Sequence record: OR352937.1
Source: Escherichia phage AV106
DNA: 50,922 bases
Direction: 5' to 3' (one strand)
The translations under genes were made by a program, and so were the position numbers. Below the pieces are notes generated by a model. The model saw nothing but the letters and a program-made list of their open reading frames with translations. It did not search any database and had not been told where the DNA came from. How positions within the stretch are numbered: position 1 is the first letter of the stretch; each line of letters opens with the position of its first letter. This document shows positions 13,968-31,641 of the stretch, one piece after another.

Positions 13968-14014
13968 GATGTTTACCTTTTTGTGCTATTTATCGGTGGA
14001 CTCATTATACAGGC

Positions 14015-14047
14015 GAAAAAAAACCCGCGCAAGGCGGGTTAATTTTA
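14015..14047 (-). terminator. Intrinsic terminator between the I-like and J-like genes
   Basis: Minus strand ACCCGCC-ttgc-GCGGGT followed by TTTTTTTT; same stem as the 16164 terminator. Confidence 0.6.
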
Positions 14048-14614
14048 ACTCATATCCTCGGCATAAGAACCTGCTGAGAAAGTTGCTCCACCTCCGGCGC
14101 GATATCCATACGGGATCGGGAGAGGGTATCCCGCCGCCGTCGTATTGACAGCACCGCCGAACGCGTACGAAGGTTTATTCTTGCTTGATTGAACTTCAAA
14201 GTTTGCGCCACCAGGCTGAGGTGAAATCATCTGCATCACACCGCCCAGCACCATAGCGCCGCCCATTAAAGCTAGAGACGCGCCGCCAGTATAGAATGCT
14301 GCAACCATTATTGCCGCGCCCAATACAACCTGGAATAGACCTCCTGTCTTAGAGCCAGTAGGGATCGGTACGATTCTTATCTCTTTCGCGCACTTGAATT
14401 TTTCCTCTTCATGGTGGCCCACGTTAACGCCATCCACAAATATTGCAAACTTGCTACGAGATCCTACCTCGCTTTGCATGTACTCCTTAAATCCATCTAC
14501 CTGACTGGATAGCGCCCGGATGGCTTCCGGGTAAGAATCAACAGCGTAACGGTGAAAGACGCCGAAGCGTCTCCCAAGTGAACCTGATAATTTGATTACT
14601 TTTACATCATTCAT
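14045..14614 (-). CDS. Tail assembly protein (lambda I-like)
   Basis: 189 aa; directly downstream of the K-like gene with ATGA overlap; Gly-rich hydrophobic C-terminus. Confidence 0.5.
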   Translation of the reverse strand: MNDVKVIKLSGSLGRRFGVFHRYAVDSYPEAIRALSSQVDGFKEYMQSEVGSRSKFAIFVDGVNVGHHEEEKFKCAKEIRIVPIPTGSKTGGLFQVVLGAAIMVAAFYTGGASLALMGGAMVLGGVMQMISPQPGGANFEVQSSKNKPSYAFGGAVNTTAAGYPLPIPYGYRAGGGATFSAGSYAEDMS

Positions 14615-15345
14615 AATTTAAGATCCTTATGGCGAACGATTAAAACGGTATGATCCTGATACCATCCAGAATAAATATCCCTGCGAGATAGCTTGCCGAA
14701 GGCATGATGCAAGATCTGATTATCTCCCAGGTAAATCCCTGCGTGGTTCCATACCGGAACGTTTTGCCCTATCTGCATGATTACCATATCACCGAATGAA
14801 GGATTATTCTGATCTGGAATCTCAACGAAGCCGTCCTGCTTGTAATAATCCTGATAGAGATTAATTCCGTACTCAGGTTTCCACCATTCAAAATTCAATC
14901 GGCGATCGCGCAATTCTACTCCGTGCTCTTTGTGCCACGCCATAACAAGACCGTAACAGTCGAATGATCCTAATGACCACGGACGACCAATCAGAGGTAA
15001 TTTCTCTGGCTTCACAAATCGCATATCCCCTTCCGGCACGCTAACAATAATCCAGGTAACTTCCATCTCGTTGCACATGCACGTATCGTGAGCGCTTGGT
15101 AGAGTTGTAGCCCCCTCTCCTGTGTGGCTGTGAACAATTGCTATTGTTGTTGATTCCGCATGGTCCTCAATGCAAGCGTATTGTACGGAATCCATCATGA
15201 AATGATTCTCGGGATCACGATGCACATTATCAATGCGATGGTATTTTTGCACGCGGCCCTTTTGGGTTACTACCCCGCAGCATTCGCGGGGGTATTCTTC
15301 CTGAGCGTGAGTCATAATTTCAAGTTTAATTTTTGCACTAATCAT
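14611..15345 (-). CDS. Tail assembly protein (lambda K-like, MPN/JAMM plus NlpC/P60)
   Basis: Start moved to ATG behind RBS AGAGGA; JAMM-like HSHTGEGATTLPSAHD motif; C-terminal Cys/His peptidase-like region. Confidence 0.7.
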   Translation of the reverse strand: MISAKIKLEIMTHAQEEYPRECCGVVTQKGRVQKYHRIDNVHRDPENHFMMDSVQYACIEDHAESTTIAIVHSHTGEGATTLPSAHDTCMCNEMEVTWIIVSVPEGDMRFVKPEKLPLIGRPWSLGSFDCYGLVMAWHKEHGVELRDRRLNFEWWKPEYGINLYQDYYKQDGFVEIPDQNNPSFGDMVIMQIGQNVPVWNHAGIYLGDNQILHHAFGKLSRRDIYSGWYQDHTVLIVRHKDLKL

Positions 15346-16124
15346 TGATTTTTCCTCTGTAGTGAAGCGACAGCGCAACCGCCAAAATCCAATTCATTGT
15401 TTGCGCCGAATCTCAGGCGGCAGGCCGTTACAGTTCCCGGGCAAAAATCCAGCGACGGATCGTCTACAGGATTATTGTCTTTATCGAAGTAACCATTTTG
15501 CCCGTTGTATCCGCAGCCTTTCCCTGTTTTATACCACCCCCTTTGCGCCCAATAGCATACGCTTTGCGTGAGTCGAGATGGGATCATGATTCCATCCATA
15601 TCATACGGAGACGTAAGATCGAACCGGGCAACACTCTTATCGACATAGCTCGGGCGTTCGATATAGTATACCAGTTTGCGGTAAGCTCCGTCAGCGATTG
15701 AGCCGTTAGGTTGAATCAAGTCCTTTTGAGTGATCCAGATAGTCACCTTAGCTTGCATTAGTCCGTTATATGCACGAATCATCGCAGATACGCGACTATC
15801 GATGTTTGCCACCGTTAATTGTGGCTTTGTGGCCTTGCCGGAACTATCAAATGAGATCCCGGATATGCCGAACGGGCGCGCTCCATATTGCTCCCCACGG
15901 AATGTAATTTCTTTCGGCGGCAGCGTTCCAGTTTGCTGGGCCTGCATGATTTCCTCTGGAGTGTACTGGATGTTCTCTCCGTGGAATCGATACACCTGAG
16001 CGCCGAACTTGCTACCATCAACTTCAATAAGGGTGATTATCTCTCCAGGGTATAGTGATTGAAGGCAGTTGTGAAACAGGCTCTTCCCGCTTTCTTCATC
16101 ATAAAGTTTTTTGTTTTCGCTCAT
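15342..16124 (-). CDS. Minor tail protein (lambda L-like)
   Basis: Start moved to ATG behind RBS AAGAGGAAAAG; C-terminal Cys cluster; position between M-like and K-like genes. Confidence 0.55.
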   Translation of the reverse strand: MSENKKLYDEESGKSLFHNCLQSLYPGEIITLIEVDGSKFGAQVYRFHGENIQYTPEEIMQAQQTGTLPPKEITFRGEQYGARPFGISGISFDSSGKATKPQLTVANIDSRVSAMIRAYNGLMQAKVTIWITQKDLIQPNGSIADGAYRKLVYYIERPSYVDKSVARFDLTSPYDMDGIMIPSRLTQSVCYWAQRGWYKTGKGCGYNGQNGYFDKDNNPVDDPSLDFCPGTVTACRLRFGANNELDFGGCAVASLQRKNQ

Positions 16125-16163
16125 TGTCTTTTCCTCTTGTTTAGTTGCAACCATTCTACAGCT

Positions 16164-16195
16164 ACAAAAAAACCCGCGCAAGGCGGGCTTTTGTC
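16164..16195 (-). terminator. Intrinsic terminator between the M-like and L-like genes
   Basis: Minus strand CCCGCC-ttgc-GCGGG followed by TTTTTTT. Confidence 0.6.
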
Positions 16196-16203
16196 ATGAA
16201 GTG

Positions 16204-16557
16204 CTATTCCATAGATGTAAACTGCTCCATAAACGTTACATTAATTTCCATCACGTCGCGTGATACTGGTTTCGCTCCCAAACTATTTGGCTTAACTACC
16301 CATATCCCGACCTTCCCGTCTGGAGGCGTCCATGCGAACGGCTTGATGCGGTGAGAATCGCAGAAGTCGTAAACAGCCATGAAATCTTCCCCAGCATAGA
16401 CAACTGAATACTCGCGCCGAGTGGTGTTAAATCCAGAAGATGCAAGCTGCATGTATCCGTTACCAAACTGTATGGATCTGTCATTGTTGGTAGTGGTAAG
16501 GGAGCCGCCGCCCCCTTGAACCTGCGTACACCAACTGAAAGTATCAAGTGCCGCCAT
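16204..16557 (-). CDS. Minor tail protein (lambda M-like)
   Basis: 117 aa; immediately downstream of the tape measure gene. Confidence 0.5.
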   Translation of the reverse strand: MAALDTFSWCTQVQGGGGSLTTTNNDRSIQFGNGYMQLASSGFNTTRREYSVVYAGEDFMAVYDFCDSHRIKPFAWTPPDGKVGIWVVKPNSLGAKPVSRDVMEINVTFMEQFTSME

Positions 16558-16559
16558 TA

Positions 16560-19433
16560 TTATCCTCCTGTTTTTTCCTGAATGTAATTGTAAACCTCAC
16601 CGCCCTGTGAACAAGACTCTCGAATCATTTTTTTGAACATCATTTCTACGCCCTGAGAAATCCCTCTCGGATCTGAACCGTTGTCAACTTTAACCTCCAT
16701 ACCCCTAACATCAACGACCGTCCCGCCTGCTGACTGGTTCACTGCCTTCGGTGCGGATTTAGATGCGTTGAATCCAGAGGTTGCAACACTACCCGCAGCG
16801 GCAGCAAGCGAGGTAACAGCAACGCCTGAAGATAAAGACCTAAAACCAGAGACGGCAGGCGTAGGAGTTGCCTGTGATGCCGCAGAGTCGCTAGAGGTCA
16901 ATCCACTTGCAAAACTCCATGTCTTACCTCCCGTCATGCCTGAGATCGTATTGAAGATTACCATCTGAGCAATCATCTTGATAATCATGCTAATGATGTT
17001 TTTCGCAAAGTCCTCAAAATTTGCCTTACCTGTAGTCAGGAATTGGGTTATCATATCACTCATTCCGTTAAGTGAACTTGACGCGATATCATATACGTTA
17101 CCATACATATCCATTGCAGAATCGCCGTAATCTGCAAATGCGCTTTCAGCACCTGCCAACCAGTCAGCACGCTTGGCATCTTCCGCAGTATAGTAATCAT
17201 TTTGTGCCTTGATCATGTTCTGGAGTTTTTCATCTCCTTCGCTGCCACCTGCATTAATATAGTCAGTGGTGATCTTAGCCAGCTCCGCTTGTCGCTCCAT
17301 TTCTCTGGTGCTCATCCCGCGAGATGCGTTTAGCTGCTCTGTAGCTGCCGTCAAATCATTGACAAATTTCAGTGATTTATCGGTAAGGGCGTTCAACTGC
17401 TGCTGCTTAACAATCTGATCGCCAATCTCAGCCTTTTGTTTCGCAAGCTCTAAAACCTTCTCTTGGTTTGCAAGTAGTGCTTTTTCTTCCGCAGATAACT
17501 GACGCTTAGAACTAGCTTCTCGAAGAACAGCAATTGTAGCCTCAGTCGTAAACAGCGCCTTTCTCTGTGCTGATAGTTTTTGCCCGATCTCCTTGTGCTC
17601 CTGCAAAACCTTAAGCTGCGCTTTGAGTGAAATTAACTCCTTATCGAATTGCTCTGTAGGTGAGCGTAAAATTTTCGACTGCTTATTTCGTTCGCGGTTT
17701 CGCTTTTCGATCTCTTTAGCTTCTTCCTTGATAGCGTCCTTAGTTTCCTGGCTATACTGCTTTTCAAGAGTACGGCGCTGCTTCATTGCTTCAATGTATC
17801 CCATCTCACCTTTTTCAACACGGGCGTTGATGGCATCAAGCTCTGAAGCTAACTGATCGTAGTTGTCACGAGAACTTTTTACAATATTCTCCTGTTCCTT
17901 TAGTACATCAGCGCCGAAATCACTCATTCCAGGCAGAGACTGCGTAGCCTTAATTGCAGAGGCTATAAAGTTTGAGATGTACTCATCACCCTTCGCCAGA
18001 ATCATTTTTACCTGAATTACCGTACCCTGAACTACGTCAATAATCAGGTTTAATGCTCCTAGAGTATGATCCCCAACCCACCCCCACGCATCAGAGGCCC
18101 ACTGCTTAATATCGTTCCACATTTTTTCAAGAGGCGTGGCATTATCTGCGATCGACTTCATTCGCTTCTCCATAACTTCGGCGAATAATTTCGTTGCTTC
18201 AGACACTGCCTCAGTTTCACCCTTAGTACGGCTTAGCGTATCGATATATGTCAGTTGCCCTTTTTCTAAAAAGTTGTATTGCTCGTTAAGTTTAGCCAGA
18301 CCCTTTACAGGATCGCTTGCGATTTTATCGAACTCAGCGATGATTTTACTTGCTGATTTTCCGGTTGCTGTCGACCACTCAGCGGTAGCCTTTGTGATGT
18401 TCTGGATCTGCTCGCGGGTGTACTTACCAGAACTCGCCAACTCCGTTACAATCTCGCGAATACTCCCAATGGTTGAGTTGCTTGTCTGCGCGATCTTTTT
18501 AGACACTGAATCAAGATCTTCAGCCGTAACACCTGCATAACCGCCAGTCTCAATAAGTGCATTCTGCATATCAGTTATTGACTTGTAAGAGTCATAACCG
18601 GCTTTCGCAAGAAGACCTAAAGAGCCGACAAGAACACCAACACCAACTGTGACCGGATTAATATAGCTGAGCAATACCTTAAATGTATTCCCGATCCCGC
18701 CGAACGAGTCCTTGATTTGACCGCCTTGCTGGATGGCAACCATCCAAACTGGCATACCGGACGCAAGAGATGTAACGACGTCGGTAATCTGCGCGGGAAG
18801 CATTCGCATTGCCTGCCTATATTGCCCCGCGCTAATACCTGCGGCATTCATGGCTCGACCCTGCTCTTTCAGTTTTGCGATCAGTGGCGCTGCTTCATTT
18901 GATAGTCCAAGCTGAGCCGCTTTCAGTTCCATTAACTCTGCGTGAGTTTTGCCAATAGCGTTAACCTGACTGTTCAGGGAATCCATGAACGCTTTGTTTT
19001 TCGCTGCTGCCTGCTCTTTTGCTTTCGCTTCCTGCAATGCTGCCTGCCCCTCTTCAGTAAGCATGGCTCGGCTGCGAGCAAGTTTTGCATTTTGCATGTC
19101 CAGCATTTCACCCAAACGGAAAAATGTTTCATCTGGAACAACGCCCTTTTGCCAGAGTTTATCAAGCTGCTGAGATGCAATCTTCAGCCTTTCCATTTTT
19201 GATACTGTAGGATCGATTGCCTTTTCTACAGCCTCGTACTCTTTGCGCTGGCGCTTAAGTTGCTCTGCGTGTTCTTTAGCCTTCTGCTTTGCAACCTCGG
19301 CCTCATTGATTAAAGACCCCATAGAGTCAGCGGCTTGGTCGTTAGCTTTTGAAAACTCTTTCAATGACTTGACGGCGCGCTGCACTGTCGACACATCAAC
19401 GTCAAGCGATAGACCTGCTACCTTATCAACCAT
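16560..19433 (-). CDS. Tail tape measure protein
   Basis: 957 aa; long Ala/Gln/Lys-rich coiled-coil regions; Gly-rich hydrophobic segment; located after the G/GT chaperone pair. Confidence 0.85.
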
Positions 19434-19448
19434 ATAACCCCCTTATAT

Positions 19449-19473
19449 ACAAAAAAACCGCCAGACGGCGGCT
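19449..19473 (-). terminator. Terminator/attenuator directly upstream of the tape measure RBS
   Basis: Minus strand CCGCC-gtct-GGCGG followed by TTTTTT, then AAGGGGG RBS and ATG. Confidence 0.55.
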
Positions 19474-20107
19474 TAGTTATTCTGCTTAGCAATCATTTCA
19501 AGCGCTTTCGCTTCCATGATCCTAACGTCCTGCAATGCCAGTTCTTCATCTTCTATTTTATAGATTTTAAACAACATAGGCAAAACATTATAGTCAAGAC
19601 CATAAGCGCCAGCGCCTGAACTTCTCCACTGAGTGAGCATTGATGTAAAAACATTCCAAGCCTTCACCATTTCAGCGTCGCCAATTATCGTTTCAGGTTC
19701 CTCGTCTTCATAGTCTGAAAGACTTAAACCAACCGATCGCAATTGTTCCTCTGTTGGCGGCTTCTGATATAACAGATAGACCGCCCTTTTTAGTTTTTTG
19801 CGCGGTGTCCGGCGAGAGCCTTGATGTAAGTTGCTGTCAGGTTGTACGCTGCTGAAGGATAATACTGAACCAGTTTTCGCGCATTTTCTTCGTTAAATTC
19901 TTCTTCAAGGTTCCATCCTGACGCGATCTTGGTAATGAACTCGCTGTCGTTCATTTCTCCCTGGTTGGCATACATATCCTGAACTTCTTTACTGGAAAGG
20001 TGGCGTACAGTGAAAATGATCGTTGCATCTTCACCGTTAGGCATGGTGAAGGTGACTGGAAGTTTGAAGTCTGGAAGTTGACCAAGAACGAAATTAAATT
20101 TAGCCAT
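19473..20107 (-). CDS. Tail assembly chaperone G-T fusion made by programmed -1 frameshift
   Basis: Slippery A_AAA_AAC on the minus strand at about 19799..19793, ending just before the G stop codon; the -1 frame then reads K-L-K-R-A-V-Y-L-L-Y-Q-K-P-P-T-E-E-Q-L-R-S-V-G-L-S-L-S-D-Y and continues through ORF 19473..19742. Confidence 0.6.
19790..20107 (-). CDS. Tail assembly chaperone (lambda G-like)
   Basis: 105 aa; RBS CCAATCAGGAGA; ends in a slippery heptamer directly before its stop codon. Confidence 0.6.
   Translation of the reverse strand: MAKFNFVLGQLPDFKLPVTFTMPNGEDATIIFTVRHLSSKEVQDMYANQGEMNDSEFITKIASGWNLEEEFNEENARKLVQYYPSAAYNLTATYIKALAGHRAKN
19793..19799 (-). other. Programmed -1 ribosomal frameshift slippery site (A_AAA_AAC)
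   Basis: Canonical X_XXY_YYZ heptamer at the 3' end of the G-like ORF, in the position where tailed-phage G/GT frameshifts occur. Confidence 0.6.
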
Positions 20108-20189
20108 GATATTTCTCCTGATTGGTTAATGGCACTTTTTGTTAAAAGAGAATAGTGCAAACTTGATACGATGATTTTACAGAAATGAA

Positions 20190-20212
20190 TAAGGGGGCGC
20201 AAGCCCCCTTGT
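20190..20212 (-). terminator. Terminator-like hairpin after the major tail gene
   Basis: GGGGGC-gcaa-GCCCCC, with a U-rich tract on the minus strand. Confidence 0.5.
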
Positions 20213-20221
20213 GGATATGAT

Positions 20222-20890: not shown

Positions 20891-20892
20891 AA

Positions 20893-22498: not shown

Positions 22499-22510
22499 AA
22501 TTTACCACCA

Positions 22511-22540
22511 TAAAAAAAGGCGCTACATGAGCGCCTTGAT
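22511..22540 (-). terminator. Attenuator hairpin
   Basis: Minus strand AAGGCGCTC-atg-TAGCGCCTT followed by TTTTTTTATGG. Confidence 0.5.
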
Positions 22541-22542
22541 GA

Positions 22543-22830: not shown

Positions 22831-22841
22831 TTTGATTTCTC

Positions 22842-22873
22842 CAATAAAAAAGGGACTAACTAAGTTAGCCCCT
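22842..22873 (-). terminator. Terminator after the major capsid gene
   Basis: Minus strand GGGGCTAACT-tag-TTAGTCCC followed by TTTTTTATT. Confidence 0.6.
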
Positions 22874-22879
22874 ATAATA

Positions 22880-23839
22880 TTACACGCCAGTGATTAAGAC
22901 AATAGTCATCGGGCGATAAATTGTAAGACCAGTACACTTAGAGGTGCAAGGCACTTTAAAGTGCAAGTCTTTCGGTTGTGCTGGCAGCATGTTAAATGCT
23001 TCCGGGATCTCGATGGACATGTTCATCGGATTCTTTTCGTACACCAGTACGCCTTTGGTGCCTGCGCCGTCAATATCCTCAAGCTCTGCGATAGAGTCGA
23101 TTTCGATACCTGAGTTCTGAGACTTGAAATAGTCCAGATAAGACATGGTAGTCTCAGGCATACGAATCGCCAGCACCTTACGCATGGACGGCGGGATCAG
23201 AATGTTGGTAGCTCGGTGCTGGCCTCGAGTAATCGTCTCGATGGTTTCGATCGCCTGAGTCAATTCCGCTTCAGCCGTTTCCGGTTTCTGAGTTGCGCCA
23301 TCCATCCACTTACCGGAGGTAATTTTGGTGATGTTCGGATGATTGAACACGGACACAATCTTGTGCGGCGCGGAACCTTTGAACACCAGGCGGTTAACAA
23401 GCTGATCATGAGCCAACTGGCACGCACTTGCCTTACGGGTTGACAGTGGGCGACCAGTTGCCTGACCTGCTTTGATTTCGTCGATTGAGATCAGATACGC
23501 GTTACCCAGACGGAACACCTTGCCAAACTCAGAAGTACCCAGGGCGTCAACCAGCGGAAGATCGTCGGTGTAGTCTGCGATAATCTGAGCCGTACCAACC
23601 TTGTCAAAGGTCATGTATTCAAACGTCTTATCAGTCGGAGAAAGATCGGTTGTAACCGGGAATACGCGTAGAGCGGAGCCGACCGGGTAGTCTTCTTCAT
23701 AGGACTGGCTTTTAATGCGGTGTAGTTCCTGAGCGGTCCAGATACCCATCGTTGCGGCTGCATCCTGTTTTACGCCAGCCTGGATCAGATACATTTCAAC
23801 ATTGCTCTTATCTGCTTCGTCAAATTTTTTAGTAGTCAT
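22880..23839 (-). CDS. Major capsid protein
   Basis: 319 aa; RBS AAGGAGAAG; position after scaffold and decoration genes; flanked by attenuator hairpins as expected for the most highly expressed structural gene. Confidence 0.75.
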   Translation of the reverse strand: MTTKKFDEADKSNVEMYLIQAGVKQDAAATMGIWTAQELHRIKSQSYEEDYPVGSALRVFPVTTDLSPTDKTFEYMTFDKVGTAQIIADYTDDLPLVDALGTSEFGKVFRLGNAYLISIDEIKAGQATGRPLSTRKASACQLAHDQLVNRLVFKGSAPHKIVSVFNHPNITKITSGKWMDGATQKPETAEAELTQAIETIETITRGQHRATNILIPPSMRKVLAIRMPETTMSYLDYFKSQNSGIEIDSIAELEDIDGAGTKGVLVYEKNPMNMSIEIPEAFNMLPAQPKDLHFKVPCTSKCTGLTIYRPMTIVLITGV

Positions 23840-23930
23840 GATTACTTCTCCTTAGTTAATAAAAAAGCCGTGATTATGTTCACAGCTTCAATAATAGCAC
23901 TTTTTGTTAAAGCGTCAAAGTGTTTTTGTG

Positions 23931-24947
23931 TTATGGGGCAGGTTCAGCAGCGATGGTTAACTCAGCCTGACCACTAACACCAGAGCCATCCGCAGCAGTC
24001 CAGATAACATTAACTGTACCAGCAGCAATCGTGGTTACGAGTCCGGTAGCAGCGTCTACAGTCGCCAAAGCGGTATCAGACACAGACCAGGAGCCAGATT
24101 TGTTTGTAGCATTCTCTGGAGTCACAGCCACACTAGCTTGTACGGTTTCGCCAGCAGTTGCAGAATCTGCAGCAAGGCTTACAGCAGCGCCAGTAACATT
24201 AACGACAGCTTTTTCGAATCGATATGCGATTGTCTCACTAGTCTCACTTGCATCATTTGCAGTCCACGTCACATTAACGTTTCCAAACACATCACCACCG
24301 ACAGGGGTTAGCTTTCCAGTCTGATCAATAGTTGCAATGTTCGTAGCATCAACAGACCATGCGCCAGTTTTATCAGTTGCGTCATCTGGTTTTACGGTAA
24401 CGCTGCATTGTACGGGTGCATTGTTTGGCTGTGGGCTTGTCTTGTTAGTAGTGATTGTTGCAGAATCAACAAGAACAACCGGAGGCGGTGGGGGTGGAGT
24501 AATGAAAGCATTTTGTTTCACCTGAACCTCAATAATGTGCCCGTCTTCGTGCTTAACAAAGCCACCCGCGAAGGTCCAGCCTACAGATCCAGCGCCACCA
24601 GTGACAACCCCACCAGCTCCAAACTCTAACTTTGAGAACAAATCAGGAGCTTCATCAAGAGAAGTAAGCGCCCAGGCGCGACCGTGAGAAACGACGTTAC
24701 ACACTTCACCATCAAGGATTTTACCGCTCAGGTGTTCGTATTGGGAACGAAAAGCGATACCGTAAGGTGTTCCACCATCAGCAAGCGCCGTTACAACTTT
24801 CATTCCGTCAACGATCCCGATAACTTGGACTGCCGCGCCGAACTCAATATCACCTTGAGCCACACAAGCGCCATCAATGTTATAGGTTGAAGTATCAGAA
24901 AGATTACCCGGACACGCGGGGCGCAAGAACAAATTTTCGTAAGCCAT
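23931..24947 (-). CDS. Capsid decoration-like protein with two C-terminal Ig-like (BIG2-type) domains
   Basis: 338 aa; N-terminal 150 aa paralogous to ORF 25009..25488; PPPPPP linker; two tandem repeats of about 60 aa (SVTVKPDDATDKTGAWSV... and SVAVTPENATNKSGSWSV...) that look like bacterial Ig-like domains. Confidence 0.55.
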   Translation of the reverse strand: MAYENLFLRPACPGNLSDTSTYNIDGACVAQGDIEFGAAVQVIGIVDGMKVVTALADGGTPYGIAFRSQYEHLSGKILDGEVCNVVSHGRAWALTSLDEAPDLFSKLEFGAGGVVTGGAGSVGWTFAGGFVKHEDGHIIEVQVKQNAFITPPPPPPVVLVDSATITTNKTSPQPNNAPVQCSVTVKPDDATDKTGAWSVDATNIATIDQTGKLTPVGGDVFGNVNVTWTANDASETSETIAYRFEKAVVNVTGAAVSLAADSATAGETVQASVAVTPENATNKSGSWSVSDTALATVDAATGLVTTIAAGTVNVIWTAADGSGVSGQAELTIAAEPAP

Positions 24948-24957
24948 AATAATTTCT

Positions 24958-24996
24958 CCATAAAAAAAAGGGACTATCCAAAAGGATAGCCCCTAT
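24958..24996 (-). terminator. Terminator after decoration gene 25009..25488
   Basis: Minus strand GGGGCTATCC-tttt-GGATAGTCCC followed by TTTTTTTT. Confidence 0.6.
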
Positions 24997-25008
24997 ATTA
25001 AATGCTAA

Positions 25009-25488
25009 TTACAGTTGATGCAACTGAACTTCTACAAGCTGAATATCTTTATATTTGGCAAAGCCGCCAGCGTAAGTCCAGTTAGTAGTGATTGTGCCAT
25101 CAGATTTTTCCTGACCATCAACATCAAGTTTAACGGCAGTGCCGAAAATTGGTGTGTCGGTGGATTTTGAAAGCATCCAAACTCGACCGGAGGTCATTAC
25201 GTTGATTGCGCCGCCTTCTTCATAAACCATCTGGCCTTGAGAATTAACAGTCTGCCAGTGAGAGCGAATCGCTACACCGTAGGGGTATTTTTCTGCTTCC
25301 ATACCCTTAATGAGTTTATGACCATCAGCCGCTTGCGCTGCGACAACCTGCACGGCAGATCCAACAAAAACAGAACCCCCCTCACTAACAACGCAAGCGC
25401 CGTCAACGTTGTATTTAGAGGTATCCGAAATCATGCCCGGGAGGGCGATCGCCATGTCGCGCTGATAAGATGCGTTAATCTGTGCCAT
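25009..25488 (-). CDS. Capsid decoration-like protein (short paralog)
   Basis: 159 aa; shares SDTSxYNxDGACV and downstream blocks with the N-terminus of ORF 23931..24947. Confidence 0.5.
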   Translation of the reverse strand: MAQINASYQRDMAIALPGMISDTSKYNVDGACVVSEGGSVFVGSAVQVVAAQAADGHKLIKGMEAEKYPYGVAIRSHWQTVNSQGQMVYEEGGAINVMTSGRVWMLSKSTDTPIFGTAVKLDVDGQEKSDGTITTNWTYAGGFAKYKDIQLVEVQLHQL

Positions 25489-25499
25489 GATATTTCTCC

Positions 25500-26612
25500 T
25501 TACATTACTTTGCTTAAACGTGAATTTGGCGTAACAGGAGCGGCGTCGTTTTTCTCTTCCGGCTTACCGCCTTCGATAGAGTCGCCTTTTACTGCTTTAC
25601 GCTGAATAGCCATGATATCAGAATCTTTAGCAACATCAAACATAGCGTCGATATATGCGTCTGATTTTTCACTAACATCTTTATCAAGCATGGCTTTAAC
25701 TACGGCAATCTTGACGTCTTTGATATCAAGACCATCATGTTTGACGCCTGCGGTTTCTGCTACTGCGGTAACTTCTGCGCGTGCGGCGGCATCGGCTTTT
25801 TGCTTCTCTACCTCTGCCTTCACAAGTTCCGGCAGAGAGTCAACCTTAACCTTCAGCGCATCGCGCTCAGCTTCGAAGCCATCAGCTTTCCCCTGAATGG
25901 TGGCAATCTGCGCGGTTAATTTTTCGATATGGTTCGCAACGTCTTCGGTTACTTCCACATCAACTGAGTCGATCTTAATTTTTTTCATTTGCTTGTCCTC
26001 GTTAGTTAATTGAACGTTATTATCATACGGGAACTCCTGTTCGGCATCAAGATTTAATTTAGCAATTCCCGCACGACCTTTAAAAACTAGGGCAATATGG
26101 TTGACCTTGATATTAGTTTGTACCGCGTCGAATTTCACCCAACCTTCAGGTGGCGCTTCGTCCTGTTTCATATCCTCTTCGAAGATATATTCTCCAGTCT
26201 CATTTGAACCCCAGCCGGGCTTATCAATATCTACCGACGTATACCCTACAGATAATTCCCCGGCCTCCTTCGCTTTAGCTTTGCTGATCGCGTAGTCGCT
26301 GTAAATACTCAAAGGAACTTCAACGCCAACCCCTGAAGCAATACCAGCGCCAGCACACGATCCGACAACAACGTCCTTAGCATTTTGGGGTGTCACCGTT
26401 ACGTGACCGACTGTTATCGGCTTGCCTGCAAAACTTTGCAAGGAATCTTGCTTGAAAACTTCGGACGCCGGACGGAACTCAACTCGATCGCCGTGAGGCG
26501 TTTTGTAAACCTGAGCGCCGATTCGCGCCACGATTGGGCGGTCAACTAAAAAACCGTTATCATCAAAGTGAGCCTTGATTTTTACTGAATCGAATCTTTG
26601 CTTTGCCTTCAT
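25500..26612 (-). CDS. Prohead scaffolding protein (possible scaffold/protease fusion)
   Basis: Start moved to ATG behind RBS AGGAGA; C-terminal half is Lys/Glu/Ala-rich coiled coil; position between the head morphogenesis and capsid genes. Confidence 0.45.
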   Translation of the reverse strand: MKAKQRFDSVKIKAHFDDNGFLVDRPIVARIGAQVYKTPHGDRVEFRPASEVFKQDSLQSFAGKPITVGHVTVTPQNAKDVVVGSCAGAGIASGVGVEVPLSIYSDYAISKAKAKEAGELSVGYTSVDIDKPGWGSNETGEYIFEEDMKQDEAPPEGWVKFDAVQTNIKVNHIALVFKGRAGIAKLNLDAEQEFPYDNNVQLTNEDKQMKKIKIDSVDVEVTEDVANHIEKLTAQIATIQGKADGFEAERDALKVKVDSLPELVKAEVEKQKADAAARAEVTAVAETAGVKHDGLDIKDVKIAVVKAMLDKDVSEKSDAYIDAMFDVAKDSDIMAIQRKAVKGDSIEGGKPEEKNDAAPVTPNSRLSKVM

Positions 26613-26614
26613 TT

Positions 26615-27376
26615 TTAATCTCCTGTAGAAAAGTCTGGAACAGCCCAACAGCGGCAGTTGTATTCTTCACCCGGGAATACGTGATCGGAATCTACCGCTA
26701 TGCGCTTACCTTCCCATCTTACATGTTTTTCACGTTCGCGTAAATCCATCACCCCGCGCCAGAAATAGTAAGATACACCAGCGTCTTTTATGCGCTGCCG
26801 CATCAGTCTACTGTTCCAGGTTCCGACAATTCCCGACGCTCTATTTTTGGCCCAGCTACGGTAAATACCAAATCGCTCCTTAGCAAGTTCAACAACAAAA
26901 TCCTTGCTTTTACCCTGACCGGATGCCGCACGAAGTTTATCAGTGAAATCAGTAACCATGTTGGCGGCAAATTTCCTGATAGAAGTAGTCACCTGCGATC
27001 GCCACAGATTATATTGTCCTGAGTACCAGCTTTCGGCAGCGGTAGGACCAATCAGGGCAAGTAGCATTACGGCTTGATTCTTCTTACCTCCAGCATTTCT
27101 AGCTATTCGCAACCACTGCTTAGAGTTGAATTTATAGATAGTTAGCGCGACGGATGATAGAGATCCGATAATCGGCGCGATTAGAGATTCGACGTAATCA
27201 AGCAATGACCTTTCTGTCTGATCTATCTCTTCGTCAGTAGCGTCAAATTTCATCGGCTTTAATTCGTCACGCATTTTTTCAGTTAGTTTGGCTGCAACAT
27301 CCTGTAGGGAGCGCGACATTGCGCGCTCGCTCATTTCAGGATAGCGCCACTGTGTTGCAACGCCATTAATTTTCAT
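26615..27376 (-). CDS. Head morphogenesis protein (SPP1 gp7 / Mu F-like)
   Basis: 253 aa; C-terminal PGEEYNCRCWAVPDFS matches the conserved motif of this family; directly follows the portal gene. Confidence 0.7.
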   Translation of the reverse strand: MKINGVATQWRYPEMSERAMSRSLQDVAAKLTEKMRDELKPMKFDATDEEIDQTERSLLDYVESLIAPIIGSLSSVALTIYKFNSKQWLRIARNAGGKKNQAVMLLALIGPTAAESWYSGQYNLWRSQVTTSIRKFAANMVTDFTDKLRAASGQGKSKDFVVELAKERFGIYRSWAKNRASGIVGTWNSRLMRQRIKDAGVSYYFWRGVMDLREREKHVRWEGKRIAVDSDHVFPGEEYNCRCWAVPDFSTGD

Positions 27377-28649
27377 CTTCTAACTTCTCCCCTAATCCCG
27401 GCTCCGGTTCGGTTGTTTCTTCCGGTTCGCGAATGTTGATGTTATTACCATCCTTGAGTTTGAACTCAGGGGCAATGGATCGCAACGTGTCGCGAGCTTC
27501 TTCCAGATCGATGATTTGCTCAGTGATAGCTTTCGTAACCGACTCAACGTTATTCTTCGTGATCTCTGATTCCTCTTTCTTACTCGGAACAGACAAAGGC
27601 TCAAACTCGATCGACCACTCTTCCTCATCAACAATGAACGGCAACAAGAACTCAAGAAGCGGCCTGTAATCTTCCTCTCGTTTGCGATCGACTAGCTTAT
27701 AGAAAGTCTCAAGCGCTGTGTTTTGGCTCGCTGATACGCCGCCTACGTTCTTATTCTTGATGATAATCTCATGAATCCCGGATAGGGAGACGATGCGGTC
27801 CATCTTGCTTGATAAGAACTCAGGAACTCCGCTGATATCAGAGTTGAGAACGTCATACTCCTCAGTCTCAGCATCGATACCGATCGCACGGCCCACGCCG
27901 GAGTTATCATCAACCTGAGCAAGTCGCAGGCGCGCGGCATACTGAGCGTCATCATCATCACACATTTCGGCAAGACCTTTGACCTTCCATACAGCCTGTT
28001 GCTTACGTCTCAAGATCTGAGTAGCCAGAGATTCACAGTAATCATAGTCACAGATTGCATCAATCAGTGACTTATTCAATACCGAAGCTCCCCATCCTTG
28101 ATTCTGCTTTCTTGCCTGTTGCGTTACTCGTTCACCATCAGCAATAAAGACTCTTGAGTGATGAATCAGGTACGGCTGCATATTGTCGCCAGGGGATACC
28201 TTGTAAATTTCAGGCTCACCATAGCGAGGAGATCTTGCATTGGTGACTCGCTTTTCAACAGTGATAGCAAATCGATCATAAACTCTGACGCCTTCAAGTT
28301 TAGCTCCAGACTTTGCCTGACTGGTTAACATCCGGTTGTCTTTGATGATTGCCACCATCGCCGCGCCACCGTAAAGACGTGCCCAACAAAGAAGATCCAC
28401 CAGACTTGAATCAAGTTTGTAGCTATCCCATAAAGACTTGAACTCTTTTTCATCCTTAACGCCTGACATTTTAAAACCAGCCGTCACCATCTCTTCCGGG
28501 ATAACATCCACAATTCGCTTCGCGGTTGCGTTGTCGTTGTAGAAAGAACCGACGTGATATGATGCATCAGACATAAAGAATGGCTTAGGCGATCCGTCCG
28601 CGCCGCCGTTAAAGATATCGTTATATCCATCATGCTTAACAATTTTCAT
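27366..28649 (-). CDS. Portal protein
   Basis: Start moved to ATG behind RBS GGAGGAAAC; about 427 aa; immediately downstream of the large terminase gene. Confidence 0.7.
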   Translation of the reverse strand: MKIVKHDGYNDIFNGGADGSPKPFFMSDASYHVGSFYNDNATAKRIVDVIPEEMVTAGFKMSGVKDEKEFKSLWDSYKLDSSLVDLLCWARLYGGAAMVAIIKDNRMLTSQAKSGAKLEGVRVYDRFAITVEKRVTNARSPRYGEPEIYKVSPGDNMQPYLIHHSRVFIADGERVTQQARKQNQGWGASVLNKSLIDAICDYDYCESLATQILRRKQQAVWKVKGLAEMCDDDDAQYAARLRLAQVDDNSGVGRAIGIDAETEEYDVLNSDISGVPEFLSSKMDRIVSLSGIHEIIIKNKNVGGVSASQNTALETFYKLVDRKREEDYRPLLEFLLPFIVDEEEWSIEFEPLSVPSKKEESEITKNNVESVTKAITEQIIDLEEARDTLRSIAPEFKLKDGNNINIREPEETTEPEPGLGEKLEDEN

Positions 28650-28661
28650 GTTTCCTCCAAT

Positions 28662-28687
28662 AAAAAGGGCCGTCAATTGACAGCCCT
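28662..28687 (-). terminator. Attenuator between the large terminase and portal genes
   Basis: Palindrome GGGCTGTCAATTGACGGCCC followed by TTTTTATT, then RBS. Confidence 0.5.
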
Positions 28688-28703
28688 GATTATATCTCAT
28701 TTA

Positions 28704-30272
28704 TTACCGCTTAACCATCCCGGCTAGTCGCTTCATTCGCTCGATAGGATCGTCAATTGTCAGTAGTTCAATGTTAGCCGCATCCATGAAGTTATCGACA
28801 ATATCATCATGCGGGTGAGTGTCATCGTAAGTGAAGGCGCTATGTTCTGCGATGATTTCCGCAAGCATAGGGTGCTCTTCTGGAAGAACCACGCGACCAG
28901 CCTTAATGACTGGCTGAGCATCCATCGCTCGGGTAACTTTATCCTTGTTACGCTGCAATGGAGTGATAGAGATCGGAGTCTTCTTCCTGAGATTCTGGAT
29001 TAAGCCCGTACCGCTTGCTTTGTCTTCCACGTAGATTTTACGAAGTACCCCCATTGATTTATTGTGCCTCCATGCCTGATTGACGAAAGCTGTAAATTGC
29101 CTCTCCATATCCGGCGCTTCCCACTTTCCGCGAATGCCGTCGATAAAGTAAACCTTATCATTCTTCTTGCCCCACAAACAAAATACCGTGTAGTCGTTTA
29201 GCTCACCTGTCTTCTGAGCGGTATCGGCAGTGATGAATCGGTAATCATATTTACCCGGATCTGGCTCGTCAGCGTCAAGACTGCTGCCGTAATAAGTCCA
29301 CCACTCTGAGTTAAACACGGAGCCACCCAGCGCGATCGGTTTCTGCTGATACTGAGAATCAAAGGTATACTGATCTGCTTCTCGTAACGCTAACAGGTCG
29401 TGAACGCTTTCCTTGCTGGGCCAAAAAGAGTAATGCTTAACGCCATCCAATTCTACATACTCAGACGATAAAACATCACGCTCAAAGTAAGGCTGCAACC
29501 AATCAGGAAGTGTCTTTCCGTATTCTTCCGTCACCAGCGCCGGTATTGAGATTTGGTCAAACTCAATACCCATCCCGCCATTCATCATGAACCATGTTGA
29601 ATCCTGAGCATGTAGTCGTTGCTGAATTGCAATAATAGGCGTCTCGTTATGCATGCGACGGGATCGAATGGTGTTTTTCAATAGCATGTGTGTACGCTCA
29701 CGCTTAACCTTTGAGAACATATCATCAGGCTTGTCGATATCGTCGAGCATTACCATACCTGAGAATCCCGGCGTCATGTAGCCACCACGCGAACCAGTAA
29801 TACGACCGCCAGCCGCTGCGGATATCAACTCAAACCAAACCTTTCCATCTTCGTTAAGAACCTGCATCTCCTCGTCTTTCGATGTGCCGAACTTGCAAGG
29901 CCATAGCTCTTGAAATTCGTTGCTACTGATAATCTCACGGACGCGCTTACTGTTACGCTTAACCAAGCTGTCAGCAAACGACACGTTAAGGTTTCGCACC
30001 TTCTTACACTTGAGCATTGCGTAAACAGGAAGGTGAATTGAGAACACTTCAGTTTTACCGGAACCTGGCGTGACGTTAAAGATTGTATTCCCTCGTCGGC
30101 CTGCAATAATTTCCTCCACTTCGTGACATAGGTAAAGGTGATGCCAGTTAGGCTGGAACTGCTGAGCCTGCATAAGCTGGAACCAGATCCGAATCATTTT
30201 TTCGAAATTGGCCTCGCTCATTTTCTTGATCGCTAACTTCTGCGTTGCGTTAAGGTCTTCCCATTGAATCAT
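28704..30272 (-). CDS. Terminase large subunit
   Basis: Start moved to second ATG behind RBS GGGAGA; Walker A-like TPGSGKT; conserved nuclease-domain acidic residues in the C-terminal half. Confidence 0.85.
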   Translation of the reverse strand: MIQWEDLNATQKLAIKKMSEANFEKMIRIWFQLMQAQQFQPNWHHLYLCHEVEEIIAGRRGNTIFNVTPGSGKTEVFSIHLPVYAMLKCKKVRNLNVSFADSLVKRNSKRVREIISSNEFQELWPCKFGTSKDEEMQVLNEDGKVWFELISAAAGGRITGSRGGYMTPGFSGMVMLDDIDKPDDMFSKVKRERTHMLLKNTIRSRRMHNETPIIAIQQRLHAQDSTWFMMNGGMGIEFDQISIPALVTEEYGKTLPDWLQPYFERDVLSSEYVELDGVKHYSFWPSKESVHDLLALREADQYTFDSQYQQKPIALGGSVFNSEWWTYYGSSLDADEPDPGKYDYRFITADTAQKTGELNDYTVFCLWGKKNDKVYFIDGIRGKWEAPDMERQFTAFVNQAWRHNKSMGVLRKIYVEDKASGTGLIQNLRKKTPISITPLQRNKDKVTRAMDAQPVIKAGRVVLPEEHPMLAEIIAEHSAFTYDDTHPHDDIVDNFMDAANIELLTIDDPIERMKRLAGMVKR

Positions 30273-30311
30273 GATTAAGTCTCCCATGCGGGCGCTCGCG
30301 CGCCCCTAACG

Positions 30312-30836
30312 TTAAAGCATATCAAGAATGCTGTTTACCGCCTCTTTCATCGCATCCTCAGTAGTGGCGACTACTGTCGATGCGGAAGCTGACGAGTTTT
30401 CGATATTGATTGAGGTTGGCTTATCGATTCCGAGATCCTTACCGATAAAGGAGGCATTAATAACACCGTTGGCGGCAAGCTGGAATTTTTGCTCATTGAT
30501 TACCGATTCCACAAACTCCATAACCTCGCTGTATTCTTCCTCTCGCTTCCACTTAATGATCGCGGCCTCGCTTGCACCGATGAATAGTCGGTATCCGGTC
30601 CAGGTGAAGACGCGCGGCTTATGAACTAGCGATTCATAAACGCCACCCTGAAAGCTGGCTGATTCTGACGCCTTGATTGCGTTGTCCTCAGCCCATTCGA
30701 AATACTTAACTGACAGATCGAATAGTTGCTCAGGCGTCATTGCCCGGTTTTTAGCAAGAACAGTGCCGAACTTTTTCTTGTATAGCTCTTTGAAATTGCC
30801 TCCCTGGACTACGGGGGCGTTCTTAGGTTCACTCAT
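30312..30836 (-). CDS. Terminase small subunit
   Basis: Start moved to ATG behind RBS AAAGAGGATGG; directly upstream of the large terminase gene; preceded by a dyad motif and a terminator. Confidence 0.5.
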   Translation of the reverse strand: MSEPKNAPVVQGGNFKELYKKKFGTVLAKNRAMTPEQLFDLSVKYFEWAEDNAIKASESASFQGGVYESLVHKPRVFTWTGYRLFIGASEAAIIKWKREEEYSEVMEFVESVINEQKFQLAANGVINASFIGKDLGIDKPTSINIENSSASASTVVATTEDAMKEAVNSILDML

Positions 30837-30888
30837 AAATCCATCCTCTTTGTTTAACATTTAGTGCTATTTTACCATATTGCAGGCA

Positions 30889-30915
30889 TAAAAAAACCCG
30901 CCGAAGCGGGTTAGT
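30889..30915 (-). terminator. Terminator at the end of the early minus-strand array
   Basis: Minus strand CCCGC-ttcg-GCGGG followed by TTTTTTT. Confidence 0.6.
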
Positions 30916-30920
30916 ATTTA

Positions 30921-31148: not shown

Positions 31149-31149
31149 G

Positions 31150-31477: not shown

Positions 31478-31641
31478 TACGCAATCCTCTTGAATTGTTG
31501 CCGCTTACGGGTCTGCGGCGTTGCTTAACCACTATGCAACCGAGCTTGTTAGCTGGAAGTGTGAGAATCGTCTCACGCGTTGCGCTTATTTGCGCCTCGT
31601 CTGTCTACGGGATTAATACTATCACCGCTCAGAGATTCAGG

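Follow-up and report, generated by a model that had tools for sequence, protein, structure and literature searches.

The paper on phage TLS credits the "transcripton" picture of the late genes of coliphage T1 to Roberts, Martin and Kropinski 2004 (PMC11447400). Using stricter criteria, the TLS authors recognised only three sigma-70-like intergenic promoters, and transcriptons in TLS were not affirmed (PMC11447400). TLS is said to rely on the host polymerase throughout, none being phage-encoded, and the same is expected for T1-like phages (PMC11447400). In the literature we found neither 3' nor 5' transcript ends mapped for a T1-like phage, nor a usable description of start sites inside terminators.

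We analysed a stretch of 50,922 nucleotides of Escherichia phage AV106 (OR352937.1), here called the window. It belongs to a Tunavirus with about 94% DNA identity to T1, with which it shares the same genes, junctions and hairpins; the late genes lie on the minus strand. In the T1 GenBank record (AY216660) rho-independent terminators are annotated at the homologues of 8 of the 10 hairpin sites described below, namely seven of the nine listed in an earlier note on this DNA and the site at 23864-23889. The hairpins between TerL and portal and between the major tail protein and chaperone G (V>G) are without annotation in T1, and a single late promoter is annotated there, before the capsid gene. 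Most of these hairpins were already known as predicted T1 terminators, in GenBank and discussed since 2004. What we add is comparative evidence of selection on the structure of all ten throughout the family, two sites beyond the T1 annotation (TerL>portal and V>G), and the coupling of most hairpins to conserved promoter-like sites through two compact types of overlap. Neither these geometries, with a -10 next to the 5' arm or with a -35 in the loop followed by a 17-nt spacer, nor their conservation throughout the family is described in the T1 sources consulted.

All nine hairpins that the earlier note had placed between late genes were recovered at their positions on the minus (transcribed) strand, each in an intergenic gap of the late array. 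The list lacks a tenth hairpin, at 23864-23889, which immediately precedes the major capsid gene. The predicted features are listed from TerS to the tail fibre gene J (dG in kcal/mol; deco, decoration gene; Ig, Ig-domain decoration gene; MCP, major capsid protein; GT, G-T chaperone; TMP, tape measure protein; SD, Shine-Dalgarno).

30895..30912, minus strand: gp23>TerS terminator AACCCGC-TTCG-GCGGGTT; seven T at 30888-30894; dG -11.8; terminator annotated at the T1 homologue
30869..30877, minus strand: extended -10-like TGgTAAAAT, candidate, 10 nt past the gp23>TerS T-run, upstream of TerS
28689..28717, minus strand: promoter-like TGGTTA-17-TATAAT; -10 ends 1 nt before the TerL>portal hairpin
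28666..28687, minus strand: TerL>portal terminator, 9 bp, loop AATT; five T at 28661-28665, then SD and the portal ATG at 28649; dG -17.7, z -5.3; not annotated in T1
24969..24994, minus strand: deco>Ig terminator, 11 bp, loop TTTT; eight T, then SD; dG -19.4; annotated in T1
23891..23918, minus strand: major capsid promoter-like TTGACG-16-TGcTATTAT, 10/12 plus TG; promoter annotated in T1
23864..23889, minus strand: Ig>MCP terminator, 10 bp; six T; dG -12.8, z -5.6; annotated in T1
22874..22902, minus strand: promoter-like TTGTCT-17-TATTAT; -35 in the last MCP codons, -10 abutting the MCP>gp32 hairpin
22851..22873, minus strand: MCP>gp32 terminator, 10 bp; six T, then SD; dG -13.8; annotated in T1
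22517..22537, minus strand: gp32>head-tail connector terminator, 8 bp; seven T, then SD; dG -14.0; annotated in T1; without promoter
20174..20210, minus strand: V>G module; hairpin 20191-20210, 8 bp, dG -15.7, not annotated in T1; -35 TTGCGC at 20197-20202 (loop and 3' arm), TAAAAT 17 nt downstream at 20174-20179
19455..19474, minus strand: GT>TMP terminator, 8 bp; seven T, then SD and the TMP ATG at 19433; dG -14.1; annotated in T1; without promoter
16153..16195, minus strand: M>L module; core CCCGC-CTTGC-GCGGG at 16173-16187, extended by A4/T pairs, seven T; dG -14.1; terminator annotated in T1; -35 TTGCGC 16176-16181, 17-nt spacer, -10 TAGAAT 16153-16158
14004..14047, minus strand: I>J module, preceding the tail fibre gene J (ATG at 13967); hairpin AACCCGC-CTTGC-GCGGGTT at 14022-14040, eight T; dG -14.4; terminator annotated in T1; -35 TTGCGC 14027-14032, 17-nt spacer, -10 TATAAT 14004-14009

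RNA folding of the nine previously listed hairpins gave dG values of -11.8 to -19.4 kcal/mol with z of -2.5 to -5.3 against dinucleotide shuffles. The ten stems are perfect and G+C-rich, 7-11 bp long with 4-6 G-C pairs, and the loops measure 3-5 nt in the folded structures (6 nt in the Ig>MCP hairpin). In 9 of 10 cases 5-8 T follow directly 3' of the stem; the exception is 20191-20210 at V>G, where the T-run is weak in this phage (ATTCATTTCT) but good in most relatives. All ten lie downstream of a stop codon, between annotated late genes, and are co-oriented with them. A loose scan of positions 12000-31900 returned 30 terminator-like sites where 18.7 +/- 4.0 were expected, and a stricter scan of the whole window returned 30 against 8.7 +/- 2.7 (maximum 14 in 30 shuffles). 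The only intragenic hairpin from these scans, at 21256-21274, was discarded as coding; with a z of -1.3 it is no more stable than shuffled sequence, 21 of 200 shuffles doing equally well. With the covariance models of Rfam 15 at gathering score we obtained no match in the whole window.

We then compared the junctions among 63 relatives with capsid protein identities of 57-100% and late-protein identities down to about 35-65%, taking all counts over distinct junction sequences. A hairpin with a T-run was present at the same ten junctions in 85-100% of the distinct regions, and in at most 0.5% of shuffled regions. The individual counts are 14 of the 15 distinct relatives having gp23 for gp23>TerS, 29/32 for TerL>portal, 21/21 with the junction resolved for deco>Ig, 28/32 for Ig>MCP, 34/35 for MCP>gp32, 29/34 for gp32>connector, 42/44 for V>G, 36/38 for GT>TMP, 35/35 for M>L and 36/38 for I>J. 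Eleven other late junctions, mostly between overlapping or nearly abutting genes, yielded one terminator-like match in total. The comparison of stems across relatives, which the earlier note had suggested as a check, showed that stem sequences differ between clades while the hairpin and its T-run stay at the same junctions. Nine junctions have 13-25 distinct hairpins each and gp23>TerS has 4, with many positions changed on both sides of the stem; the MCP>gp32 hairpin alone has 18 distinct stems. Because the hairpins were picked for pairing, these turnover counts are descriptive only. Such stem-anchored counts were used instead of covariation from MAFFT and RNAalifold, which for MCP>gp32 and Ig>MCP gave consensus energies of -5.6 and -0.2 on poor alignments of these short, length-variable hairpins. 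A chance origin is ruled out by the shuffles of the window and of the orthologous junction regions. The terminator-like reading of the earlier note is borne out by the canonical anatomy, by the same junctions being used in relatives, by stems that turn over while the hairpin stays, and by the T1 annotation. Sequence comparison lends good support to evolutionarily conserved, terminator-like hairpins.

To call them a near-identical family, as had been done, was an overstatement. Only two pairs are alike, plus two looser relations, and the median score in pairwise alignments of the modules was 6, near the background (null 3.4 +/- 1.6, maximum 12). The modules deco>Ig and MCP>gp32 are alike over about 60 nt with a score of 32, M>L and I>J over about 60 nt with a score of 26. 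The shared stems themselves proved exact: CCCGCGCAAGGCGGG occurs at 14024-14038 and 16173-16187 only (0.06 expected even with 2 mismatches allowed) and AGGGACTA...TAGCCCCT at 22851-22873 and 24969-24994 only (0 expected). The hairpin at 24958-24996, described before as capsid-flanking, actually separates the decoration gene from the Ig-domain decoration gene. The longest common substring was given up as a test for shared stems; it understated the relation between deco>Ig and MCP>gp32 (6-7 nt, the background 95th percentile), which the module alignment showed clearly. A duplication of terminator modules, as previously suggested, is compatible with the two pairs of about 60 nt. However, much of the identity between M>L and I>J is functional sequence (-35 TTGCGC, T-run and -10), and it is confined to the T1 clade and a few others; duplication is therefore not separable from convergence or gene conversion.

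At 7 of the 10 junctions a conserved sigma-70-like promoter is predicted to overlap or adjoin the hairpin. In design A, found at TerL>portal, Ig>MCP and MCP>gp32, the -10 ends 0-2 nt before the 5' arm. In design B, found at V>G, M>L and I>J, a TTGCGC -35 is located in the loop and 3' arm and the T-run in the spacer, with the -10 exactly 17 nt downstream. The extended -10 after the T-run of gp23>TerS is separate from both designs. Matches to the consensus amount to 10/12 for TTGACG-16-TATTAT with TG, to 9/12 each for TTGTCT-17-TATTAT, TTGCGC-17-TATAAT and TGGTTA-17-TATAAT, and to 8/12 each for TTGCGC-17-TAGAAT and TTGCGC-17-TAAAAT. The design-B -35 agrees with the consensus in TTG only (3/6), and the design-A -35 at TerL>portal likewise reaches 3/6.

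Among distinct relatives a -10 abuts the TerL>portal hairpin in 33/36 (TATAAT in 22), and the MCP>gp32 promoter is present in 21/26, including clades with a different MCP C-terminus. The capsid promoter is kept across clades as TTGnnn-16-TAT(C/T)AT abutting the hairpin (automatic count 21/40); at those Ig>MCP loci with an inserted gene that were listed, the promoter plus hairpin still adjoins the capsid gene. The design-B promoter geometry occurs in 33/42 relatives at V>G, 36/43 at M>L and 37/39 at I>J. Upstream of TerS, TGnTAAAAT is kept in 14/14 of the distinct relative sequences listed and is a better candidate than a promoter with a loop -35 (TTCGGC-17-CAATAT), which was rejected as too weak, 1/15 passing. 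At deco>Ig the promoter matches among relatives are weak and inconsistent, with no conserved promoter. The abutting-promoter test gave 0 at gp32>connector (0/26; downstream 1/39) and at GT>TMP (promoter in 0/35 and 0/28), and the design-B geometry test 0-1 at four control junctions that lack a promoter. The abutting test has a background of 4-6 matches out of 19-40 at four further junctions to which no abutting promoter was assigned; some -10-like hexamers arise by chance, because AT-rich sequence (stop codons, A-tracts) precedes terminators.

A further repeat, ATAGCAC-N3-TTGnTAAAA, occurs throughout the family at or beside several modules and, in the early region, upstream of inverted repeats that bear a -10. 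The extended -10 at 30869..30877 overlaps the first 2 nt of one copy, and the spacer of the capsid promoter at 23891..23918 is a reversed copy. We considered its TTGnTA as a -35; the nearest -10-like hexamer is 22 nt away in the early copies and 8 nt at TerL>portal in relatives, which is not canonical. Early copies as antisense extended -10 promoters were also dismissed, the -7 T not being conserved (flanks read by eye).

Since most hairpins adjoin a conserved promoter-like site, the "late operon" resembles a chain of short units of transcription more than a single operon with progressive attenuation. We propose, with a probability of roughly 0.7, that the hairpins are intrinsic terminators for the host RNA polymerase at ten boundaries, seven of them with sigma-70-type promoters that make the array such a chain, and that three are attenuators. 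The units would comprise TerS-TerL; portal to the decoration protein, the Ig-decoration gene being reached by read-through; the major capsid protein on its own; gp32, whose transcripts would read through into the connector genes and as far as the major tail protein; G/GT, likewise reading through into TMP-M; L-K-I; and J. The major tail protein gene is located downstream of an apparently good terminator without a conserved promoter between them, an arrangement that is awkward for a simple stoichiometry argument.

In design A, initiation about 7 nt downstream of the -10 would fall inside the 5' arm of the hairpin because the -10 abuts this arm. Locally initiated transcripts, without a complete hairpin, would then escape, while incoming transcripts would terminate. 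When folded, RNAs begun 6-9 nt after the design-A -10 reach 0 to -5.5 kcal/mol and leave 4-5 nt unpaired ahead of the U-tract; incoming transcripts reach -12.5 to -15.9 kcal/mol. Design B would use the T-run as the 17-nt spacer between a -35 in the loop and 3' arm and the -10. The hairpins at deco>Ig, gp32>connector and GT>TMP lack a promoter and lead straight into a ribosome binding site, therefore the genes downstream would be expressed by read-through and the hairpins may serve as attenuators stepping expression down. The graded attenuation within one operon that the earlier note had envisaged fits these three junctions, where the T-run leads into the SD and no conserved promoter is found, but not the other seven, which carry a promoter. 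The promoter-bearing junctions appear to match the T1 transcripton picture as cited in PMC11447400. We infer termination, its efficiency, the start sites and the escape of locally initiated transcripts from the sequence.

The model of the earlier note in its full form, one long late operon whose leaky hairpins set the structural stoichiometry by a stepwise fall, taken here to have no functional internal promoters, seems unlikely to us. Some read-through is indeed required, since five of the T-runs lead straight into a Shine-Dalgarno sequence; other phages provide documented cases of stepwise read-through (PMC9163698), and strict promoter searches in TLS found few (PMC11447400). However, six junctions keep -35/-10 pairs of fixed geometry, and the seventh an extended -10, across clades with diverged flanks, compared to about 0 at promoter-less junctions, and the capsid gene has a 10/12 promoter with TG that is also annotated in T1. 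Moreover, with ten terminators in series, their stems of 7-11 bp followed by 5-8 U, hardly any transcript would reach the tail fibre gene, which comes last. We consider it quite improbable that the hairpins act mainly after transcription, as 3' stabilisers or processing boundaries against 3' exonucleases, and do not stop RNA polymerase. They do come after the genes whose products are required in the largest amounts (decoration, capsid, major tail protein), and in the T1 group the V>G hairpin keeps its stem with a weak U-tract; a terminated transcript would be protected anyway, so that the two roles are not exclusive. Yet 5-8 T after the stem are conserved at nearly all junctions and relatives, and a stabiliser would not need a T-run. 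Perfect stems of 5-11 bp followed by a U-tract are also too short for T7-type RNase III sites and unlike them, and no Rfam family was matched anywhere in the window.

The terminators could alternatively be efficient early and overridden late by a phage antitermination factor, making them timing switches and not stoichiometry setters. Such factors classically act on terminators placed in series within a late array, as with lambda Q, and the conserved ATAGCAC-N3-TTGnTAAAA repeat stands beside several late junctions. Time-dependent read-through has also been reported for LUZ7 (PMC9163698). We nevertheless hold this to be very improbable: neither the T1 late annotation nor the literature searched contains an antiterminator, and internal promoters make antitermination unnecessary for most units. 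Virtually no weight can be given to chance palindromes or selfish REP-like repeats without a role in expression. Two pairs share stems, but REP-like elements would be many near-identical copies at non-orthologous sites, and we found two alike pairs at orthologous positions. The large excess over shuffles speaks against this explanation too, as do the fixed orthologous junctions, kept down to 57% capsid identity with different stems, and the mutual dissimilarity of most of the ten.

Returning to the chain of short units, we tentatively extend it, at somewhat less than even odds, to the whole of the Drexlerviridae. Late terminators and promoters would there form single overlapping modules of two fixed geometries, either with the start site in the 5' arm, such that only incoming transcripts see a complete hairpin, or with the -35 in the loop and the U-tract as spacer, insulating each structural block in less than 60 bp; ATAGCAC-N3-TTGnTAAAA may bind a putative phage regulator that times the modules. 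As first written, the hairpin finding had little at stake. If RNA mapping confirms the modules, it would settle whether T1-like late regions are transcriptons, the question raised in the TLS paper. It would further offer a set of small insulator parts of natural origin, terminator and promoter combined, for use in E. coli, and therapeutic phages of the T1 type could be engineered from a concrete map with their expression balance undisturbed.

In LUZ7 (by ONT-cappable-seq) and in T7, inefficient serial intrinsic terminators in co-directional arrays give nested transcripts and tuned downstream levels (PMC9163698). The three promoter-less hairpins of the window resemble this stepwise read-through. 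In contrast to the hairpins predicted here, those of LUZ7 and T7 were mapped experimentally, and both phages use RNA polymerases encoded in their own genomes; T1-like phages have none. Like lambda, the window comes from a siphophage that keeps its head and tail genes in one long co-directional array, and its tail genes M, L, K, I and J are lambda-like. The lambda late operon relies on a single late promoter together with the processive antiterminator Q, and is not known to have terminator-promoter modules between its structural genes. Here, seven junctions have promoter-like sites of their own, and no Q/qut equivalent was identified in the T1 late annotation. The RNase III hairpins of T7 are similar in being structured intergenic elements that punctuate polycistronic phage transcripts. 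These sites are long imperfect helices of about 20 bp without a U-tract, whereas the elements described here are perfect stems of 5-11 bp followed by 5-8 U.

When the region 14000-31000 was compared by megablast, 473 phage records matched, the best being the Tunavirus genomes JMPW2, SH6, pSf-2 and T1 with 93–94% identity over 97% of the query. The minus strand encodes the structural genes, beginning with a small gene (31148-30921) and ending with tail fibre gene J (13967-10515). The order is small gene, TerS, TerL, portal, head morphogenesis protein, protease, decoration protein (deco), Ig-domain decoration protein (Ig) and major capsid protein (MCP), followed by gp32, connector proteins, tail terminator, major tail protein V, chaperones G/GT, tape measure protein (TMP), M, L, K, I and J. 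Junctions are written below in the order of transcription (e.g. MCP>gp32).

Over its N-terminal 145 residues, the Ig-domain decoration protein (23931-24947(-)) is 36% identical (E 1e-25) to the decoration protein (25009-25488(-)); the two are paralogous, the result of a tandem gene duplication. Both genes are 79–83% identical to those of most T1-group relatives, the adjoining genes 95–100%, and the Ig-domain product comprises 338 aa here vs 255 aa in T1. The longest TerS reading frame starts with the ATG at 30860 (minus strand) within an ATAGCAC repeat; the start annotated in T1 lies 24 nt further downstream (window 30836) after a good AAGAGGA ribosome-binding site.

The nine terminator-like hairpins of the earlier note all consist of a stem-loop followed by a T-run on the minus strand, with folding energies of -11.8 to -19.4 kcal/mol as RNA; relative to dinucleotide-shuffled sequences, their z-scores run from -2.5 to -5.3. 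At V>G (20190-20212) the stem is strong and the T-run weak. We found a tenth, overlooked hairpin at the Ig-decoration/capsid gene junction (23864-23889; -12.8 kcal/mol, z -5.6). A loose terminator scan of the late region returned 30 sites vs 18.7 ± 4.0 expected; under stricter criteria (6 or more pairs, 4 or more G-C pairs, 5 or more T in 8) the whole window had 30 vs 8.7 ± 2.7. The hairpin observation is correct and far beyond chance. The single intragenic candidate, at 21256-21274, was dropped since it folds no better than shuffles.

As predicted terminators of phage T1 the hairpins are already known. In the curated T1 record AY216660, seven of the nine and the tenth have homologues annotated as "terminator, rho-independent", and a promoter feature stands just ahead of the capsid-proximal terminator; T1 (our locus L013) also has the hairpins at TerL>portal and V>G, without annotation. 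Part of the 2024 TLS paper (PMC11447400) recaps the 2004 T1 genome paper; for TLS 21 intergenic terminators were predicted and transcriptons were not affirmed after a strict promoter search. Other T1-like genome papers predicted 8–21 terminators, and in our literature search no T1-like phage turned up with experimentally mapped transcript ends. The overlap geometries of terminators and promoters and their conservation across the family, described below, add modest new detail.

An IMG/VR capsid-protein search yielded 63 loci of relatives with 10 kb flank, in which capsid identity ranges from 100% down to 57% and that of other late proteins to about 35–65%. Late genes were placed by tblastn and every junction was scanned for a hairpin plus T-run. 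The same ten junctions bear one in most relatives (27–55 of 48–61 loci per junction; 15/16 at gp23>TerS), and the eleven other late junctions, mostly between overlapping or nearly abutting genes, gave a single match in total. At a threshold of dG ≤ -9 with five or more T, a terminator was present in 85–100% of the distinct junction regions vs 0–0.5% after shuffling each region. The stem sequences themselves vary, as a comparison across relatives, proposed earlier as a check, made evident: at MCP>gp32 the stem reads AGGGGCTAAC/GTTAGTCCCT in the window and GGGGAATCC/GGGTTCCCC, AAGCCTCTC/GAGAGGCTT or GGGAGCCTC/GAGGTTCCC elsewhere. Nine junctions have 13–25 distinct hairpins and gp23>TerS has 4, with many stem positions altered on both sides. 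RNAalifold on MAFFT alignments reported compensatory pairs, in alignments that are poor because the hairpins are short and variable in length; no Rfam family matches the window. Taken with the conserved U-tracts, the turnover of stems at retained junctions indicates that selection maintains intrinsic terminators, and it argues against an explanation by chance palindromes, mobile repeats or RNase III sites.

The comparison also showed putative sigma-70-like elements in fixed register with most late hairpins, conserved across relatives, mostly in two arrangements (designs A and B).

Promoter-like sites at late hairpins
28717-28689, minus strand: TerL>portal, TGGTTA-17-TATAAT, design A
23918-23891, minus strand: Ig>MCP, TTGACG-16-TGcTATTAT, design A
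22902-22874, minus strand: MCP>gp32, TTGTCT-17-TATTAT, design A
20202-20174, minus strand: V>G, TTGCGC-17-TAAAAT, design B
16181-16153, minus strand: M>L, TTGCGC-17-TAGAAT, design B
14032-14004, minus strand: I>J, TTGCGC-17-TATAAT, design B
30877-30869, minus strand: gp23>TerS, conserved extended -10 TGnTAAAAT after the T-run

In design A the promoter lies just upstream and its -10 ends 0–2 nt ahead of the 5' arm. This arrangement is kept in 33/36 cases at TerL>portal; at MCP>gp32 it is kept in 21/26, which include clades differing in their capsid C-termini. For Ig>MCP the automatic count was 21/40, and those loci with an inserted gene that were inspected also have the promoter plus hairpin beside the capsid gene. 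The inserted gene, of about 0.7–0.8 kb between the Ig-decoration homologue and the MCP gene, is found in many relatives (e.g. L015, L019, L022, L038) and has its own terminator upstream. Elsewhere the test for abutting promoters gave 0 matches at gp32>connector and GT>TMP, and 4–6 chance-level matches at four junctions without an assigned abutting promoter. Transcription starting 6–9 nt past a design A -10 would begin within the 5' arm. RNAs with such starts fold with only 0 to -5.5 kcal/mol and have several unpaired bases before the U-tract, vs -12.5 to -15.9 kcal/mol for incoming transcripts across the same hairpins; judging from this folding, locally started transcripts should therefore escape the terminator that stops incoming ones.

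In design B the putative -35 (TTGCGC) lies within the loop and 3' arm, and the -10 follows exactly 17 nt on. Among distinct sequences of relatives this geometry occurs in 33/42 at V>G, 36/43 at M>L and 37/39 at I>J, vs 0–1 at four promoter-less junctions. It explains the 15-mer stem previously noted as shared by M>L and I>J, which on the transcribed strand is CCCGCC-TTGCGC-GGG, a stem around a -35. At deco>Ig, gp32>connector and GT>TMP no conserved promoter was found among the relatives compared and the T-run leads directly to the Shine-Dalgarno (SD) sequence; only these three look like pure attenuators.

The two shared stems quoted in the earlier note are exact and occur nowhere else in the window. 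One pair had been called capsid-flanking, which is slightly wrong, as 24958-24996 precedes the Ig-decoration gene and 23864-23889 the capsid gene. We aligned the ten modules pairwise, from 8 nt before to 32 nt after each hairpin. Deco>Ig and MCP>gp32 scored 32, with ~80% identity over ~60 nt covering flank, T-run, SD spacing and ATGGCT; the other pair, M>L and I>J, scored 26. Looser links join gp23>TerS to I>J (21) and TerL>portal to MCP>gp32 (19), against a median of 6 and a shuffled-partner null of 3.4 ± 1.6 (maximum 12). The M>L/I>J 15-mer identity holds in 14/14 T1-group loci and a few others; most other clades share only a TTG(C/T)G core. Duplication of modules, as first proposed, and homogenisation within the genome are both reasonable readings of the two outstanding pairs, and functional sequence in common (-35, T-run, -10, SD) makes up part of the similarity. 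The other six hairpins are unlike each other, so that "near-identical" is overstated for the family.

ATAGCAC occurs 21 times in the window vs 5.8 ± 2.35 expected.

Examples of ATAGCAC
13983-13989, minus strand: copy
16201-16207, minus strand: copy
23894-23900, plus strand: copy
30864-30870, minus strand: copy
33990-39229, minus strand: copies
40475-44408, plus strand: copies

Most copies are part of ATAGCAC-N3-TTG(C/T)TAAAA, oriented along transcription, a 21-nt direct repeat without assigned function in TLS, T1, Rtp and Rogue1 (PMC11447400). Three forward copies adjoin late hairpins, and the capsid promoter has its spacer and TG made up by a reversed one. Within the T1 group, the spacer at V>G contains a second copy, in reverse (TTTTAACAAAAAGTGCTAT), which creates an extended -10-like site, TGcTATCAA, ahead of G; it is degenerate in the window (GTGCCAT, 20120-20140(-)), and it is missing from the short spacer of several other clades. 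Many relatives outside the T1 group (L017, L018, L019, L025, L030, L036, L037, L038, L040, L046) carry ATAGCAC-N3-TTGCTAAA directly ahead of the TerL>portal TATAAT, so placed that TAGCAC occupies the -35 position (17-nt spacer) and TTGCTA is separated from the -10 by just 8 nt; the window's own TerL>portal junction lacks the repeat.

Early-region ATAGCAC units
33940-33996, minus strand: unit
34465-34516, minus strand: unit
36095-36151, minus strand: unit
37385-37438, minus strand: unit
38440-38492, minus strand: unit
39180-39229, minus strand: unit
41446-41500, plus strand: unit
41910-41960, plus strand: unit
43262-43315, plus strand: unit
43777-43830, plus strand: unit
44277-44330, plus strand: unit

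About 8 nt beyond each early ATAGCAC-N3-TTGnTAAAA lies an inverted repeat of 5–7 bp with a -10-like hexamer (TAGAAT, TATAGT, TATTAT, CATAAT, others) in its loop or 3' arm; the arms vary among copies and complementarity is kept. Since the hexamer follows TTGnTA by 22 nt in the four copies counted, TTGnTA is too distant for a -35. The units may represent a class of promoters specific to these phages, equipped with an activator box; the sources consulted do not present them in this way.

For the late genes we predict seven transcription units, a more detailed version of the transcripton picture: TerS-TerL (unit 1); portal to decoration protein, with read-through to the Ig-decoration gene (unit 2); MCP by itself with the strongest promoter (unit 3); gp32, with read-through to the connector genes and then to V (unit 4); G/GT, with read-through to TMP-M (unit 5); L-K-I (unit 6); and J (unit 7). 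Termination at the late hairpins is inferred, as are how efficient it is, where transcripts start and whether control changes over time. The hairpins would act as terminators, as the earlier note proposed, but mostly as promoter-coupled unit boundaries instead of a single attenuation ladder. Graded attenuation would apply within units 2, 4 and 5. It is awkward for unit 4 because the abundant tail tube protein sits downstream of a good terminator. At GT>TMP it is plausible because the chaperones are needed in excess over the tape measure, as in lambda. Stepwise read-through at inefficient phage terminators has published precedent in LUZ7 and T7 (PMC9163698).
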